From an uncultured Thermodesulfobacteriota bacterium (GTDB taxonomy: Bacteria; Desulfobacterota; GWC2-55-46; JADFVP01), in the NCBI GenBank assembly GCA_964407495.1, contig CAYOVP010000001.1:11829-75828 (forward strand): 64,000 nucleotides of DNA, read 5' to 3'. The notes beneath the pieces are model-generated. The model did no database searches and was not told the origin of the DNA. It worked only from the letters and a program-made list of their open reading frames with translations. The translations under genes were made by a program, and so were the position numbers. Shown here piece by piece: positions 2,230 through 54,756 of the stretch; within the stretch, counting starts at the first letter, position 1; each line of letters starts with the position of its first letter.

Positions 2230-3975
2230 ATGCTTGTAGAACTGAGGATAAAGAACTTTGCCATAATAGAGAGCCTCGTTATTGAACTTGCAGGCGGGTT
2301 GAATGTCTTTACAGGCGAGACCGGCGCCGGCAAGAGCATCATAATGAACGCCATCTCCCTTGTGCTCGGAGACCGCGCCGCCGCTGACCTTGTGCGCACG
2401 GGAGCCCCTGGCGCCGAGGTAGAGGCCCTCTTCGATATCTCTGGCATGAGCGCCATCCGCCATGCCCTCGAGGAGGCCGGCATCGAGCCCTCCGATGACC
2501 TCGTCATAAAGCGCACCATAGCACGGGCCGGGAGGAACAGGATATACATAAACGGGAGCCTCGCCACCCTCGTAACCCTTACGGAGATTACGCGCAACCT
2601 TATCGACATTTACAGCCAGAGCGAGCATCAGAGCCTGACGCGCATGGAAGAGCACCTCGGTGTCCTCGATTCCTTCGGCGGCCTCGGGGAACTCAGGCGC
2701 CAGATGCAGGTGGCCTATGAAGACTACATCGCCATCTGTCGCGAGCGCGACTCACTCAAGGAGGACGACGGTGGCGCCACTGCCCGCAGGGAACTCCTTG
2801 CCTTTCAGGCCCGCGAAATAGAAGAAGCCGCCCTCACGCCTGGCGAGGAAGAGGAACTTAGGACACTGAGGCAGAGACTCCAGAACGCCGAGAAGATAAA
2901 GGGCGTTGCCGCACGGGCCGAAGAGGCGCTGTACTCGGCATCTGGTTCTGTCATAGAGCGCCTCGGCGCCGTGGTACGTGAACTCGGAGAGATATCTGCC
3001 TTTGACGATAAGGCCGCCTCGGCCCTCGAAGAGATAGAGTCCAGCCTTTACCAGATAGAGGACGCCGCGGCAACGCTCCGAGATATAGCCGGGGGCGTGG
3101 AGTTCGAGCCCGGAAGGCTCGAAGAGGTGGAGGACAGGCTCTACAGGATAGGTGCACTCAAGAAAAAATACGGCCCCACCATAGAGGCCATAGCAGAGTA
3201 CAAGAAAAAGATTGACGCCGAACTTGCCGGTCTTGACGACCTTGACGAGAGGCTCGCAGAGATAGAGGCAAGGCTCGAAGAAAAGGAAAAAATCGCGCGT
3301 GAGACCGCCGCGAGGCTCACGACGGCAAGGAGCAAGGCCGCAAGGGCGCTCAAGGCCAGGATGGAAGAAGAACTCGCCACCCTTGGGATGGAGGGGGCGG
3401 TCTTCGAGGTCCTCTTGAAGACAGAGGCGGACCAGGTCTCGGGCACTGCAAGGCTCACGGCCCGTGGTGCCGAGAGGGTGGCCTTTTATATCTCCACCAA
3501 TCCGGGTGAAGAGATAAAACCGCTGTCAAGGGTGGCCTCTGGCGGGGAACTCTCAAGGATAATGCTCGCCATAAAGAACATCAGCGCCGCTGGCAAGGTC
3601 CCCACGCTCATCTTCGACGAGATCGACACGGGCATAGGCGGTGCAATGGCCCACGTTGTGGGCGGTAAACTAAAGGCCCTCGCGAGAACTCACCAGGTGC
3701 TCTGCATAACGCACCTTCCACAGATAGCGGCCTTTGCGGACGAGCACTTTGTGGTCAAGAAGGAGACCATGGCCGCGGCAGGCGCAGGTGAGGACGCCAA
3801 GGACCTTTCAGAGAGGGAGGAGAGCACCAGGACGGTCACCACGGTACGGAGGCTCGAAGGCCGCGAGTGCTTAGAACAGATAGCATGGATGCTTGGCGGA
3901 ACCAATGTGACGGATACTACGCGGGAGCATGCAAGGGAACTCGTTGAGAGGGCGGTGCAGGGGAGTGTGGAGTAG
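2230..3975 (+). CDS. recN: DNA repair protein RecN
   Basis: N-terminal MLVELRIKNFAIIESL...FTGETGAGKSI (Walker A), long coiled-coil, C-terminal ABC signature/Walker B (PTLIFDEIDTGIGG). ATG at 2230 lies inside ORF 2224-3975. Confidence 0.93.
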   Translation: MLVELRIKNFAIIESLVIELAGGLNVFTGETGAGKSIIMNAISLVLGDRAAADLVRTGAPGAEVEALFDISGMSAIRHALEEAGIEPSDDLVIKRTIARAGRNRIYINGSLATLVTLTEITRNLIDIYSQSEHQSLTRMEEHLGVLDSFGGLGELRRQMQVAYEDYIAICRERDSLKEDDGGATARRELLAFQAREIEEAALTPGEEEELRTLRQRLQNAEKIKGVAARAEEALYSASGSVIERLGAVVRELGEISAFDDKAASALEEIESSLYQIEDAAATLRDIAGGVEFEPGRLEEVEDRLYRIGALKKKYGPTIEAIAEYKKKIDAELAGLDDLDERLAEIEARLEEKEKIARETAARLTTARSKAARALKARMEEELATLGMEGAVFEVLLKTEADQVSGTARLTARGAERVAFYISTNPGEEIKPLSRVASGGELSRIMLAIKNISAAGKVPTLIFDEIDTGIGGAMAHVVGGKLKALARTHQVLCITHLPQIAAFADEHFVVKKETMAAAGAGEDAKDLSEREESTRTVTTVRRLEGRECLEQIAWMLGGTNVTDTTREHARELVERAVQGSVE

Positions 3976-10886: not shown

Positions 10887-10984
10887 GGGGCCGATGGTCT
10901 CAGGGGGCGGCTGCCAGAACTGATACCGCTGTTCCTGTCATGCCTTTTGCTGTGGCATCATCGGGGCCCGGTGCATGGGCTGAT

Positions 10985-11069
10985 ACTGGTTTTCTTTGCT
11001 CCGCTTTCTTTTTTCCAAAAGAAAGCGGAAGGTTTTCTCTGTCTTACTTTCTTTTTCAAAAAAAGTAAG
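10985..11069. repeat. Intergenic palindromic element, copy A (two tandem stem-loops; the 5' 44 nt are nearly identical to 54581-54627)
   Basis: Hairpin 1 at 11001-11028: 12-bp stem CCGCTTTCTTTT/AAAAGAAAGCGG, loop TTCC. Hairpin 2 at 11043-11069: CTTACTTT...AAAGTAAG. Sits after the secA stop and upstream of argJ. Confidence 0.7.
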
Positions 11070-11113
11070 GAAATCTTTTCACCTCATATCTTTTCATCTC
11101 AGGGGTTTTTCTA

Positions 11114-29743: not shown

Positions 29744-30120
29744 GAGAGCAAGTGGCACCGGTTTTCTTTGGGTCTACGGTGGCAGGCGTTGGAGTCGCAG
29801 GCCCGGAACCAGAGGTGTATCGAAGCCAAGGCAAATAGATGCCTTTTGAGATCTTGCCTGACCTGCGTAGTAGTAGGAATCTCTTTCGAAGGGGAGAGTA
29901 TCTCCAGGGATTCGAGCCTTAAGAAAGGGAAGAAAACTTCTTCTTGGGGCCTTGCCCTTTTCTCATCTGCTGAGTGCCGTCTTTACCCCCCCCCTCCTTT
30001 TTTTTCAGACAGCGGGACATGCTCTCTTGAGACCAAGAGGGCCTCGTCTTAGTCCCTTGCCGTCAGGAGGAGGGGGCGCAGTGCCAGGGGTTACCCCTCA
30101 ATGAGAAGGGGCCTCAAGGT

Positions 30121-47063: not shown

Positions 47064-47136
47064 CTTTTCCAGCGCCCTCTGGGCCGCTGGAAAAGGTTTA
47101 CCCTGTCTTACTTTCTCTTTTCAAAGAGAGAGTAAG
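47064..47136. repeat. Two tandem intergenic stem-loops downstream of merA; the second shares the CTGTCTTACTTTCT...AGTAAGG core with the hairpin at 11039-11070
   Basis: Hairpin 47064-47095 (11-bp stem CTTTTCCAGCG/CGCTGGAAAAG). Hairpin 47107-47136 (12-bp stem CTTACTTTCTCT/AGAGAGAGTAAG with one G-T pair) followed by a T-rich tract. Confidence 0.65.
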
Positions 47137-47181
47137 GTCTTTTAATATTCGGGCCTTTCTCGTTTCTTGTAAGGAGGTAGC

Positions 47182-51371: not shown

Positions 51372-51646
51372 ACAAGCCCTGTATCCCGGGGCTGTGAGGC
51401 AGGGCGCAGGTGCAGGCGCACTCTGAGTTGTGGGCGATTTTTCGTGAGGGGGGAGGATAGGGACAGAGACCTGCCACTTGGCCCTGGCAAAGGATTGTTC
51501 TAAAGGATCTACAGGGTTGTCTTGGTATCATAGGCGGTCCCTCTTCCGGGGTAGAGGGCAGGGGCCAGGAGTTTTATAGAGTTATGGCCGTTCCAGGCCT
51601 GTGGTATGGTTGCAAATGGTCTGGAGACGGCGATGGCTTTTTTTTA

Positions 51647-51679
51647 CCCATCTTTTCTACTATTGGTAGAAAAGATGGG
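51647..51679 (+). promoter_or_regulatory. Perfect 14-bp-arm inverted repeat CCCATCTTTTCTAC-tattg-GTAGAAAAGATGGG upstream of cusC; the core TTCTAC-N5-GTAGAA is identical to the operator at 50936-50954
   Basis: Read directly; lies 22-54 nt upstream of the cusC ATG (51701) and downstream of a T8 tract. Confidence 0.65.
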
Positions 51680-51700
51680 CTGAGTAAAGAGGGGGCATTC

Positions 51701-53162: not shown

Positions 53163-54554
53163 ATGAAAAAAGTCTTCTTGATATTACTGCTCCTCCTTCT
53201 GGGGGGCATAATGGGGGCAGGGGGGCTGTACATGACCTCCCGACACGGCAGGGAAGCGTCCGCACCGGCAGAGGGGGGGGCAGGGAAGAAGGGCAGGAAG
53301 ATACTGTACTACAAGGCCCCCATGGACCCGTCCTATATCTCCGAAAAGCCGGGGAAGTCGCCCATGGGCATGGACCTCATACCAGTATACGAGGGTGAGG
53401 AAGATACCATGGAGCCGGGTACGGTTAAAATAGACCCCGTGACCATACAGAACATGGGTGTGCGCACGGCCAAGGTGCGCCGCATGAGGTTAGAGAAGAC
53501 CATAAGGACCGTTGGCCGTATCACCTATGACGAGAAGAAGGTCTATCACATACACACCAAGATAGACGGCTGGGTGGAGAAACTCTATTTCGACTTTACG
53601 GGTCAGAAGGTGAATAGAGGTGATACGCTCCTCGAGTTCTACAGCCCCAAACTCATATCCGCCGAGGAAGAACTCCTCCTTGCCAGGAAGATGGCCGCGA
53701 GGATGAAAGAGGTGCGCAGGACCTCCCTCGTTGACCTCAGCAGGCGGAGGCTCGAACTCTGGGATGTGCCCGAGGACCAGATAAGGGAGATAGAGGAGAC
53801 TGGCAAGGCAAAGCGTACACTCCGTATCCTCTCGCCTGTAACAGGAATCATTGTGGATAAGCCCGTGGTCGAGGGCATGTACGTCCAGCCTGGAAGAAAC
53901 CTCTTCACCATAGCGGATATCTCCACGGTCTGGGCCTATGCCGATATCTACGAGTACGAACTCCCCTGGGTGAGGCTCGGCCAGGGCGTGGATATGACCC
54001 TTGCGTCCTACCCTGGGAAGGTCTTTCACGGCCATGTCTCGTTCATATACCCCTTTGTGGAGCCAAAGACAAGGACCATACGCGTCAGGGTGGAGTTCGA
54101 TAACCCGGATTTCAGACTCAAGCCCGATATGTACGCTGATATGACACTGAGGGCGGTAGTAAGCCGAAGGGCCGTGGCAGTACCCAAGGAGGCGGTCCTC
54201 CTCTCGGGTAAGCGGAGCGTCGTCATACTCTCGCGCGGCAACGGAAAGTTCAGACCCCAGGACGTGGTCCTCGGCGCAGAGACCGACGATTACTATGAGG
54301 TGCGCTCTGGCCTCAAACCCGGCGACACGGTGGTGACATCTGCGCAGTTCCTCATAGACTCGGAGAGTAGCCTCAAGGAGGCGGTCTCCAAGATGCTCGA
54401 GGCAAAGAAGATGAAGGGCTCGAAGAAGAAGGGCGGGGCCATGAAGGGTATGAAGATGCCCGGCATGAAGAAAGATATGCCCATGAAGGGCATGAAGATG
54501 GAAGGTATGAAGAAAGATATGCCCATGAAGATGCCCATGAAGGGTATGAAGTAG
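53163..54554 (+). CDS. cusB: RND efflux membrane-fusion protein (CusB/CzcB family) with Met-rich C-terminal repeat tail
   Basis: N-terminal TM, CusB-like N-terminal metal-site region (..KAPMDPSYISEKPGKSPMGMDL..), beta-barrel/lipoyl/alpha-hairpin MFP pattern. C-terminus GAMKGMKMPGMKKDMPMKGMKMEGMKKDMPMKMPMKGMK. Confidence 0.88.
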   Translation: MKKVFLILLLLLLGGIMGAGGLYMTSRHGREASAPAEGGAGKKGRKILYYKAPMDPSYISEKPGKSPMGMDLIPVYEGEEDTMEPGTVKIDPVTIQNMGVRTAKVRRMRLEKTIRTVGRITYDEKKVYHIHTKIDGWVEKLYFDFTGQKVNRGDTLLEFYSPKLISAEEELLLARKMAARMKEVRRTSLVDLSRRRLELWDVPEDQIREIEETGKAKRTLRILSPVTGIIVDKPVVEGMYVQPGRNLFTIADISTVWAYADIYEYELPWVRLGQGVDMTLASYPGKVFHGHVSFIYPFVEPKTRTIRVRVEFDNPDFRLKPDMYADMTLRAVVSRRAVAVPKEAVLLSGKRSVVILSRGNGKFRPQDVVLGAETDDYYEVRSGLKPGDTVVTSAQFLIDSESSLKEAVSKMLEAKKMKGSKKKGGAMKGMKMPGMKKDMPMKGMKMEGMKKDMPMKMPMKGMK

Positions 54555-54555
54555 C

Positions 54556-54672
54556 CCAGGCCGCGAAAAGCGCGGCCTGGAACTGGTTTTCTTTGCCCCG
54601 CTTTCTTTTTTCCAAAAGAAAGCGGGAAATAAAAGTTCTTTTCTTCAACTTTCTTTTTGAAAAAGAAAGTTG
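54556..54672. repeat. Structured cusB-cusA intergenic spacer: terminator-like hairpin, then palindromic element copy B (near-identical to 10985-11028), then a third 13-bp-stem hairpin
   Basis: 54556-54580 CCAGGCCGCG-aaaag-CGCGGCCTGG. 54581-54626 ACTGGTTTTCTTTGCCCCGCTTTCTTTTTTCCAAAAGAAAGCGGG. 54646-54672 CAACTTTCTTTTT-g-AAAAAGAAAGTTG. Confidence 0.7.
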
Positions 54673-54756
54673 CAAAGAAAACAATGCCAGCGGCCCAAGG
54701 GCCGGGGGGGCTATGGCACACTTACGAGGTATCAGGCCCTCGCAGGGAAGGTATAG

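Follow-up and report, generated by a model that had tools for sequence, protein, structure and literature searches.

Within 64,000 nucleotides of contig CAYOVP010000001.1 (assembly GCA_964407495.1, positions 11,829 to 75,828 of the forward strand; hereafter the window), derived from an uncultured Thermodesulfobacteriota bacterium, five copies of one dispersed intergenic repeat family, of the kind represented by repetitive extragenic palindromes (REP) and BoxC, were distinguished. Each unit is composed of a T-rich flank (YAYT-GGTTTTCTTTG), a linker of 0-2 nt and a 13-bp A/U-rich hairpin whose 5' arm is pyrimidine and whose 3' arm is purine. The inner flank, 5'-TTTTCTTT-3', complements the purine arm, 5'-AAAAGAAA-3', without reversal and is the mirror image of the 5' arm; being parallel-complementary to the purine arm, it would allow the flank-bearing strand to fold as an intramolecular pyrimidine-motif triple helix. 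The reading that we favour, at a probability of roughly one half, is that of a triplex-capable intergenic repeat acting on read-through transcripts.

A 45-mer (ACTGGTTTTCTTTGCYCCGCTTTCTTTTTTCCAAAAGAAAGCGGR) occurs at exactly two sites of the window, 10985-11029 and 54582-54626, and found no match in 100 dinucleotide shuffles. An earlier note on this DNA had recognized this repeated segment, placing its second start one base too early (54581), and had pointed to a compensatory difference at the stem base; the two copies do differ by T..A versus C..G at the pair that closes the foot of a perfect 13-bp stem (loop TTCC). The note had further described a second motif, and hairpins of the form CTTACTTTCT...AGTAAG are indeed present at 11043-11069 and 47107-47136. 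Their scores with a covariance model (CM), run with filters off, assign both to the same family with a different stem base, and not to a separate motif. At least three loci had been claimed; the CM identified five units at three (A, B and C), including an inverted unit, C2, that had been overlooked. The units and the GC-rich hairpins (H1a-H1c) preceding them are as follows.

10966-10980, + strand: H1a, a small GC-clamped hairpin (GCCC-GGTGCAT-GGGC) directly 5' of unit A1, read from the sequence
10980-11041, + strand: CM match of unit A1, 74.8 bits
10984-10998, + strand: flank of A1, TACT + GGTTTTCTTTG, the proposed Hoogsteen (third-strand) domain
11000-11029, + strand: hairpin of A1, a perfect 13-bp stem TCCGCTTTCTTTT / AAAAGAAAGCGGA with loop TTCC (inverted-repeat scan, CM and fold)
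11031-11069, + strand: unit A2, flank GGTTTTCTCTG and hairpin CTTACTTTCTTTTT / AAAAAAAGTAAG with one bulge (CM match 11043-11079, + strand, 23.6 bits)
47064-47095, + strand: H1b, a GC-rich hairpin (CTTTTCCAGCGCCC-TCTG-GGCCGCTGGAAAAG) 3' of a merA-like gene
47095-47136, + strand: unit B, a diverged flank GGTTTACCCTG, T, and hairpin CTTACTTTCTCTTT-TC-AAAGAGAGAGTAAG with one U-G pair (CM match 47087-47148, + strand, 53.9 bits)
54556-54580, + strand: H1c, a GC-rich hairpin (CCAGGCCGCG-AAAA-GCGCGGCCTGG) immediately 3' of the cusB-like stop codon
54582-54626, + strand: unit C1, ACT + GGTTTTCTTTG + C + hairpin CCCGCTTTCTTTT-TTCC-AAAAGAAAGCGGG (CM match 54577-54638, + strand, 75.6 bits)
54646-54683, - strand: unit C2, inverted relative to C1, with hairpin CAACTTTCTTTTT-G-AAAAAGAAAGTTG at 54646-54672 (CM match 54633-54690, - strand, 37.6 bits)

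In A1, UUUUCUUU is parallel-complementary to AAAAGAAA at 11017-11024. Units A1 and A2 form a direct tandem with a 43-nt period, A2 being a degenerate copy that has lost the match between flank and purine arm. Unit B sits 45 nt 5' of an ATG (47182). At locus C the two units form an inverted doublet, the C2 flank (TGTTTTCTTTG) lying on the minus strand at 54673-54683, with a single large predicted fold (-64.2 kcal/mol, z = -8.0); in the predicted fold of the whole cusB-cusA spacer the C1 flank pairs with the C2 flank. The window units occupy the sense strand of the spacers between secA and argJ, merA and the next gene, and cusB and cusA.

In sequence the window is identical to JGI metagenome contig Ga0257019_1000020, and by its ArgJ it belongs with uncultured Thermodesulfobacteriota. 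A pattern scan of metagenome contigs returned 92 matches, about one third of them with the full architecture, on contigs with a GC content of 0.36-0.64, and a stricter pattern scan of one genome per species returned at least 117 matches at no fewer than 97 loci. Among the matches listed, almost all belong to eight Thermodesulfobacteriota metagenome-assembled genomes (MAGs), with more than 40 in pieces of CAYYJQ01 alone, and single loci come from Nitrospirota, Saccharibacteria and Clostridia MAGs. Since both collection patterns fixed the flank and the flank-hairpin spacing, these two features are ascertained in the collected sets. At E <= 1e-6 the CM recovered 131 units in 683 kb of loci of eight related Thermodesulfobacteriota MAGs, and 38 further units in other loci and contigs. 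The same flank-plus-hairpin design is found in phage and giant-virus contigs. The dispersed multi-copy palindromic family proposed in the earlier note is thus real, with dozens of copies in related MAGs; the supposed lineage specificity is contradicted by its presence, with dozens of copies in each, in at least eight related Thermodesulfobacteriota MAG species and by the occurrence of the design in Nitrospirota, Saccharibacteria, Clostridia, phage and giant-virus contigs. As expected for a repeat, 11 of the 131 units lie at contig ends, and the Logan assembly of the same strain has a contig break inside the A1 loop.

The CM was built from an alignment of 61 distinct units, taken from public contigs as well as from the window, with 95% of cells paired. 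Double (compensatory) changes number 17, 28, 31 and 12 at its four basal pairs, a level of covariation matched by none of 500 shuffles. At the apex, 9 bp make up an unchanging homopyrimidine/homopurine helix (CTTTCTTTT/AAAAGAAAG) shared by 128-131 of the 131 copies, whereas the basal 4-5 bp vary and yet pair, apart from one CAZSAY01 sub-family (CCAAG/CGGAA) with an unpaired base. Deviations in the flank fall mainly at G1, G2 and G11; the eight positions of the predicted triplex almost never change, and the inner flank is altered in a handful of clearly decayed copies alone. Selection on the hairpin, as had been suggested, is therefore supported by the basal covariation and by compensatory changes between orthologous units; that it spares the sequence is not, the apical 9 bp, the loop and the T-rich flank being near-invariant. 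Changes at apical pairs (7 T-G versus 2 C-A) are too few to tell which strand is folded. RNAalifold applied to an extended element returned the A/U hairpin alone, the module upstream of it aligning too poorly. The family is absent from Rfam, in agreement with the earlier remark that families of this sort are often undescribed: the whole window gave no match at gathering thresholds, and the surroundings of locus A gave chance-level matches at E <= 10. A literature search with the 11-mer string retrieved unrelated primers only.

The relation between flank and hairpin is one line of argument for a triplex. Because TTTCTTT is mirror-symmetric, the canonical units alone cannot tell a mirror repeat from a direct repeat; variants can. 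The variant in locus L013 (arms CTTTTCTTTC/GAAAGAAAAG, flank GGCTTTCTTTTG, CTTTCTTTTG) and that in L138 (arms CTCTTTTT/AAAAAGAG, flank GTTTTTCTG, TTTTTCTG) both obey the parallel rule and not the direct-repeat rule, and in an array of L121 the AAAAGAAAAG core is accompanied by the flank TGTTTTCTTTTG. The parallel register of flank against purine arm holds over four different cores. In a scan of viral contigs, hairpins were chosen without any flank condition, which removes the ascertainment, and cognate flanks were counted 3-4 nt before the apical stem, with the following result.

Purine arm AAAAGAAAG: parallel-rule flank TTTTCTTTG, 17 cases
Purine arm GAAAGAAAAG: parallel-rule flank (C)TTTCTTTTG, 4 cases
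Purine arm AAGAAAAAG: parallel-rule flank TTCTTTTTG, 13 cases

A single off-diagonal case was seen overall and none that obeyed the direct-repeat rule, and the connector between flank and stem was constant at 3-4 nt. For the first two hairpin types, Fisher's test gave p = 1.7e-6 when copies were counted and approximately 0.003 when lineages were (about 7 versus 4). Viral hairpins with the core AAAAAGAAG, many of them multi-copy, have essentially no flanks of either kind and are uninformative for the mirror test; with many canonical viral hairpins lacking a flank, the flank is a feature of a subset. As read from the sequences, the matching of hairpin and flank is a three-way covariation. We know of no mutational process, and of no rotationally symmetric protein complex, that would make mirror repeats.

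The giant-virus MAG GVMAG-M-3300023184-110 of IMG/VR (loci L200, L204, L224, L236, L241, L261-L263 and L269) carries at least 15 flank-plus-hairpin copies of the form TTTTTCTTTG(T/C)CTC-CTTTCTTTT-N3-AAAAGAAAG, in which the 4-nt spacer is largely unpaired. Phage contigs of IMG/VR (L418, L425, L444, L469 and L475) contain the AAGAAAAAG-type element directly after a TATAAT box, on the purine-flank strand, in the layout ..GATATAATATGTA-hairpin-TAC-CAAAAAGAAC..; given the position of the box, the hairpin may be the 5' end of a transcript. Viral contigs of the IMG/VR 3300047xxx series (L287, L308, L334, L338, L340 and others) carry 4-5 hairpins CTTCTTTTT-N3-6-AAAAAGAAG per contig of about 10 kb; without a matching flank, these are a separate multi-copy family. 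In L121:1337-1720 (Eubacteriales MAG JAZOMG01), a complete triplex-type unit is followed by 4-5 tandem repeats of about 77 nt, each with AAAAGAAAAGTAAG-CAAAAGAAAACA.

The triplex predicted for the units would comprise seven U.A-U (T.A-T) triples together with a single C+.G-C triple and would rest on a short helix serving as spacer. The order of its blocks, third strand, pyrimidine strand and purine strand, is that of class IV of Holder et al. (PMC4666352), and the complementary strand of the unit would have a class II purine-motif design. Class IV comprises at least 8 triads with at most one mismatch, and A1, C1 and C2 each provide 8 triads by means of UUUUCUUU with AAAAGAAA-UUUCUUUU. Loop 2 measures 4-5 nt, and the connector between the Hoogsteen and pyrimidine strands 6-7 nt, of which 4-5 are paired as the spacer helix (the loop range in PMC4666352 is 1-6). 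Judged from the three blocks, the family is an A/T-rich class IV/II variant among the known bacterial intrastrand triplex motifs. ViennaRNA, which has no triplex energy model, predicts the hairpins only. H-type pseudoknots (loop 1 and stem 2) resemble the family in their order of third strand, Watson-Crick strand and purine strand, and in them 1-2 nt can span the deep groove over several base pairs; by analogy, the variable basal helix would be the corresponding spacer.

Another account is that of a plain REP-like stem-loop or tandem terminator, in which the A/U hairpin serves as a second terminator or as a block to 3' exonucleases and the mirror relation is a by-product of T-rich low complexity or of protein recognition. 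We regard this as unlikely, although part of the element does have the shape of an intrinsic terminator: after secA, H1a is followed by TGATACT-GGTTTTCTTTG, and the terminator scan flags A1, B and, at locus C, the GC hairpin H1c with AACTGGTTTT as its tail. A T-rich 3' flank is a frequent feature, hairpins lie 22-29 nt past stop codons in the antisense and convergent cases, divergent spacers are avoided, and protein binding could explain equally well why flank and apical stem are invariant. Three cores, however, each possess their own mirror-matched flank at a fixed distance of 3-4 nt with almost no cross-matches, which is predicted neither by low complexity nor by a single protein and is the opposite of a direct-repeat origin. 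The antisense hairpin is always followed by CAAAGAAAACC and hence has no U tract, and locus C is situated inside a cusB-cusA pair that presumably needs read-through. The combination of H1 and the 11-mer thus resembles intrinsic terminators in its GC-rich hairpin, its U-rich tract and its location after stop codons; unlike them, the family has a conserved A/U hairpin 3' of the U tract, and ordinary terminators display neither sequence conservation nor multi-copy identity. A role as terminators or mRNA-stabilizing stem-loops had been proposed earlier for all copies, each with a T-rich tail. The terminator reading holds in so far as a separate upstream GC hairpin can use the 11-mer as its U tract, and fails for the antisense units; tails are present 3' of A1, A2 and B, weak after C1 and absent after C2.

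The genomic placement of the units, nearly all of which lie outside long open reading frames (ORFs), was as follows.

Co-directional spacers: 74 units (45 sense, 29 antisense), against a background of 195 spacers of at least 60 nt
Convergent spacers: 20 units, against 46 spacers of at least 60 nt
Divergent spacers: 3 units, against 48 spacers of at least 60 nt, where about 16 units would be expected

The nearer gene is always on the hairpin side; on the flank side, the next gene is 130-180 nt away. Sense units have a median distance of 58 nt to the next start codon, and in antisense and convergent units the stop codon 22-29 nt away is on the opposite strand. In approximately 17-20 units the 3' arm continues straight into a GGAGG-like sequence, with ATG 5-25 nt further on. 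For 87 of 121 units (72%) the prediction has a structure ending no more than 9 nt from the flank, compared with 59 of 116 controls (51%). Usually there is a GC-clamped hairpin 5' of the flank, and each window locus has its own. In CAYYJQ01 this upstream hairpin is CCAGCGGCC..GGCCGCTGG, a repeat to which H1b is similar, and in other MAGs its place is taken by a module of about 50 nt, ATCGYGGGGCGC..TTCAAT..CCCCTATT (CCCC(T/A)ATT). The latter comprises a GGGG/CCCC-closed stem with a conserved loop motif, UUCAAKGG, and in related MAGs (L102:4990-5330, L147, L162, L096, L145 and others) tandem arrays with a period of about 100-110 nt carry the module, there with (A/T)TTCAAT, ahead of the flank in every repeat.

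This placement bears on a further explanation, that of a promoter or operator module for the downstream gene (-35/-10 elements TTCAAT-N18-19-CATATT immediately 5' of the flank, or the palindrome of a dimeric regulator). The sense hairpin does precede the next start codon by 5-60 nt, TTCAAT and CCCC(T/A)ATT are conserved upstream in several MAGs, and some phage copies stand directly after a TATAAT box. Divergent spacers, which can hold promoters only, are nevertheless nearly empty, one third of the units point away from any downstream gene, and the covariation of the basal stem is unexplained by a duplex operator; with no sigma-70-like match at locus A and weak ones elsewhere, we consider this explanation highly improbable. 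Readings of the flank itself as a sigma-54 site (its GG..GC spacing is two short) and as a sigma-70 site (no match at locus A) were rejected, as was a sigma-32 reading, in which CCCCATAT resembles a -10 box and no consistent -35 box accompanies it. A dimeric-regulator operator, a DNA-uptake sequence and an integron attC site were set aside by inference from the basal-stem covariation, the avoidance of divergent spacers, the copy density and the lack of an attC R-box.

Comparison of related genomes revealed both retention and loss. Four relatives share the 21-kb secA-argJ neighbourhood in perfect synteny; the secA-argJ spacer itself holds two units in the window, one, with another stem base, in CAYYJQ01, and none in the two Ga0256747 genomes and JAJRZX01. 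Elsewhere, units are kept at orthologous sites across MAGs whose DNA is 75-83% identical. Loci L102 and L190 have a common unit upstream of argH with two compensatory stem-base changes, orthologous retention was also observed in L104/L173 and in L145/L148, and L096 and L187 each have a unit in the same spacer. An all-against-all BLAST of the loci yielded no pair of filled and empty sites close enough to define insertion boundaries. Tandem arrays are common, as are half-units, consisting of flank, 5' arm and loop without the 3' arm, and among pairs of neighbouring full units at most 400 nt apart 10 are direct and 3 inverted. In the metagenome contigs L033 and L090 a tRNA gene encoded on the other strand has its 3' end directly next to a unit, the L090 unit being located between two tRNA genes of one apparent operon.

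These data are also relevant to a DNA-level element (an intrastrand triplex, H-DNA or a cruciform) that would influence how the genome is replicated, recombined or kept stable, in line with what has been proposed for BoxC and related potential intrastrand triplex (PIT) elements. Such an element would agree with the presence of units in both gene orientations (45 sense, 29 antisense), with the tandem arrays, half-units and presence/absence differences, and with the association with other repeats and with a transposase locus in the nearest relative (see below); moreover, the class II purine-motif design of the complementary strand forms in DNA at neutral pH (PMC4666352). The placement is, however, linked to gene ends and ribosome-binding sites, and it is always the hairpin side that is gene-proximal. 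H-DNA requires a mirror repeat only, whereas the conserved feature is a single-strand three-block design, and the fact that orthologous sites in different genera keep their units, with compensatory changes, speaks for a conserved role and against a hotspot of instability. We judge a purely DNA-level role unlikely.

Several points weigh against a triplex-capable repeat acting on transcripts. About 30% of the units in co-directional spacers are antisense (29 versus 45 sense), and a purine-motif intrastrand triplex is reported not to form in RNA, in which the pyrimidine type can (PMC4666352); antisense transcripts carry the purine flank and would thus give a plain hairpin only, so that a function exclusively in RNA cannot cover those copies. 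The flank always ends in a G opposite the last G of the purine arm, a non-canonical triple in the pyrimidine motif, and the flanks of A2 and B no longer match their purine arms, which places these two units outside class IV. Copies within one genome are not independent, flank and spacing were preset in the first two collection scans, and the gene context comes from a crude longest-ORF caller. According to earlier work as cited in PMC4666352, BoxC/PIT elements showed no promoter or terminator activity. Finally, the case for triplex formation by the unit is a comparative one, built on covariation.

In the mechanism that we favour, a read-through transcript would fold, on the flank-bearing strand, into a triplex-capped hairpin; in the window this would be the mRNA strand at all three loci. 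Such a hairpin may be unusually stable and resistant to nucleases and helicases. With the terminator-like hairpin of the upstream gene on one side of the unit and the ribosome-binding region of the following gene on the other, the structure could mark the cistron boundary, attenuate read-through and shield neighbouring mRNA ends, in the manner of the REP stem-loops of enteric operons, and the cusB-cusA spacer would be a natural place for differential control of cistrons. The family might be kept, and multiplied as a repeat, by tandem duplication together with some mobilizing activity. We infer a triplex in vivo, RNA as its active form, an effect on transcripts and the mode by which copies spread; tandem duplication is evident as one such mode, and involvement of a REP-associated tyrosine transposase (RAYT) is unsupported. 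A broader proposal, which we offer tentatively as possible though doubtful, is that the bacterial units and the viral cognate designs constitute a widespread class of encoded U.A-U/C+.G-C RNA triple-helix hairpins of about 8 triples. Prokaryotes and viruses would then have a first counterpart of the stability elements of the ENE (element for nuclear expression)/MALAT1 type, one that is used as a modular cistron boundary or stabilizer and has multiplied as a dispersed repeat in a Thermodesulfobacteriota clade.

A RAYT was considered because true REPs, or the doublets termed REPINs, would be mobilized by such a Y1/HUH transposase, with the T-rich flank acting as the GTAG guide. The nearest relative encodes a bona fide RAYT (L174, CAYYJQ010000017, ORF 2699-3241; NCBIfam REP_Tyr_transpos, 198 bits; Pfam Y1_Tnp), located by a search with transposase sequences, and two units lie about 60 and 430 nt upstream of it. 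A second, weaker RAYT-like ORF of 239 aa occurs at L167:2118-2837 (CAZSAY010000013), with a REP_Tyr_transpos score of 76 bits against a cutoff of 80, about 900 nt from one unit and without flanking units. Sub-families defined by the stem base are, in addition, shared within and between genomes. The L174 RAYT is, however, bracketed not by inverted units of the family but by inverted copies of a different, canonical GTAG-type repeat, GTAGGTTGGGTAGAGCGAAGCGAAACCCAAC; another GTAG-type REP, GTAGGGCGGGC..GCCCGCC, abundant in CAYYJQ01, is close by. The window contains neither of these GC-rich REPs and no RAYT, and outside CAYYJQ01 the units rarely adjoin such REPs. GTAG was found on neither side of the unit, the consensus 5' flank being YAYT-GGTTTTCTTTG-N, neighbouring units are mostly direct, and the design is common to several phyla and to viruses, unlike the species-specific REPs. 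Mobilization as a true REP or REPIN thus appears very unlikely. As a side observation, in L174:2150-3400 a mosaic of about 370 nt that includes the A/T unit is duplicated upstream of the RAYT, the unit being present upstream only.

The family does consist of high-copy extragenic palindromes of about 20-40 nt, and it forms mosaics like those of bacterial interspersed mosaic elements (BIMEs), with units between GC-rich REPs in CAYYJQ01 and with the upstream module, arrays and half-units in other MAGs. The inverted doublets that define REPINs are a minority, locus C being inverted and locus A a direct tandem. The family falls outside REPs and REPINs as these are defined in PMC3479197 and PMC3337134. 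Nor is it a miniature inverted-repeat transposable element (MITE): the left flank is a conserved motif and not a variable duplication, the right flank sometimes starts with GGTTTT, which is the start of a further unit, and no related insertion sequence was found. The REP/MITE-like character assigned in the earlier note is accordingly an analogy and not membership; target-site duplications around the copies, which it had suggested looking for, were not found. A literature search for RAYT together with Deltaproteobacteria retrieved nothing.

The closest known systems are the BoxC, PIT and TM_ECO elements (Hoyne et al. 2000; Holder et al. 2015), which are scattered through bacterial genomes, have the potential to form intrastrand triplexes and number nearly one million candidates in a database (PMC4666352). 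Like the present family, they are short, dispersed, intergenic and multi-copy; in both, three consecutive blocks on one strand are able to form an intramolecular triplex, stems are more conserved than loops, tandem and inverted pairs occur, and presence varies between related genomes. TM_ECO is G/C-rich and of class II, forms a triplex in vitro, has no promoter or terminator activity and is linked to genomic variability (PMC4666352). BoxC is likewise G/C-rich and of class II (CCCTCNCCC..GGGNGAGGG..GGGNGAGGG), whereas our family is A/T-rich, of class IV and in principle RNA-capable, does not match the BoxC/TM_ECO pattern CCCTCNCCC-N3-6-GGGNGAGGG-N3-GGGNGAGGG, and has an extra covarying helix of 4-5 bp between its Hoogsteen and Watson-Crick domains. 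It also comes from a different phylum and shares no sequence similarity, and its triplex is predicted from comparison, that of TM_ECO having been seen in vitro.

With REP, BIME and REPIN elements (PMC3479197, PMC3337134, PMC3116915) the family has in common (i) extragenic imperfect palindromes of about 30-40 nt in high copy, (ii) a conserved single-stranded 5' flank at the foot of the hairpin, (iii) a location in co-directional and convergent spacers, (iv) mosaics, (v) a RAYT in the nearest relative and (vi) a plausible role as mRNA stabilizer or attenuator between cistrons. It differs from them in having no GTAG, in not being the repeat that brackets the RAYT, in its mostly direct doublets and in a core conserved across genera and beyond.

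Among RNA structures, PAN- and MALAT1-type elements form long parallel triplexes of nine U.A-U triples and one C+.G-C triple, and bacteria are represented by short riboswitch-pseudoknot triplexes only (PMC7583470). The PAN ENE and MALAT1/MEN-beta resemble the family in having a U-rich strand parallel to the A-rich strand of a U-A helix, and in MALAT1, too, the U.A-U run is broken by one C+.G-C. In contrast to the ENE, which clamps a 3'-terminal A tract in a U-rich internal loop, the A-rich strand of our units is the 3' arm of the hairpin, and no 3' end would be sequestered. Bacterial riboswitches differ in binding ligands, in having about two U.A-U triples and in not being dispersed; the family is known as a set of sequences.

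Dispersed palindromes, widespread as they are, usually get filed as REP-like elements or terminators without more thought. Here, the covariation of the stem base, the invariant homopurine/homopyrimidine top and a flank that tracks the arm lead to a specific, testable structural hypothesis and to a rule searchable genome-wide, namely that flank and purine arm are complementary without reversal. Were the triplex to form in RNA, long major-groove RNA triplexes, described until now in a small number of eukaryotic and viral lncRNA stability elements and in short riboswitch pseudoknots, would be extended to bacterial, phage and giant-virus transcripts, and the unit would provide a compact natural part for insulating or stabilizing cistrons. 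Were it to form in DNA only, BoxC would gain an A/T-rich class IV/II counterpart whose comparative support is unusually clear. In both cases, the family accounts for assembly breaks and mosaic spacers in these uncultured genomes.

Two sites in the window that resemble the family were rejected as members. The 11-mer GGTTTTCTTTG after pilQ, taken earlier for a family copy and placed at 29757-29767, lies at 29760-29770; with no hairpin behind it and an E-value of 1.7 (10.6 bits) it is a chance occurrence. The pilQ-like gene is followed instead by a textbook intrinsic terminator at 29709-29745 (GCGCGCCTTC-TGTAAG-GAAGGCGCG, then T9) without an A/T unit, so the organism uses ordinary terminators too. 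The second site, at 51636-51685, is a look-alike containing a perfect 14-bp hairpin (CCCATCTTTTCTAC-TATTG-GTAGAAAAGATGGG, 51646-51679), a non-member according to the CM (11 bits, E = 1.3). It is preceded by GGCTTTTTTTT, is family-like in design with a 6/8 match of flank and purine arm, and is located 22 nt 5' of the likely true start (ATG 51702) of a cusC/TolC-like gene, whose ORF call from 51584 probably starts too far upstream. Elsewhere in the window, the C-terminus of the cusB-like protein (54450-54554) consists of a methionine-rich repeat, MKMPGMKKDMPMKGMKMEGMKKDMPMKMPMKGMK, which is plausibly a metal-binding tail.

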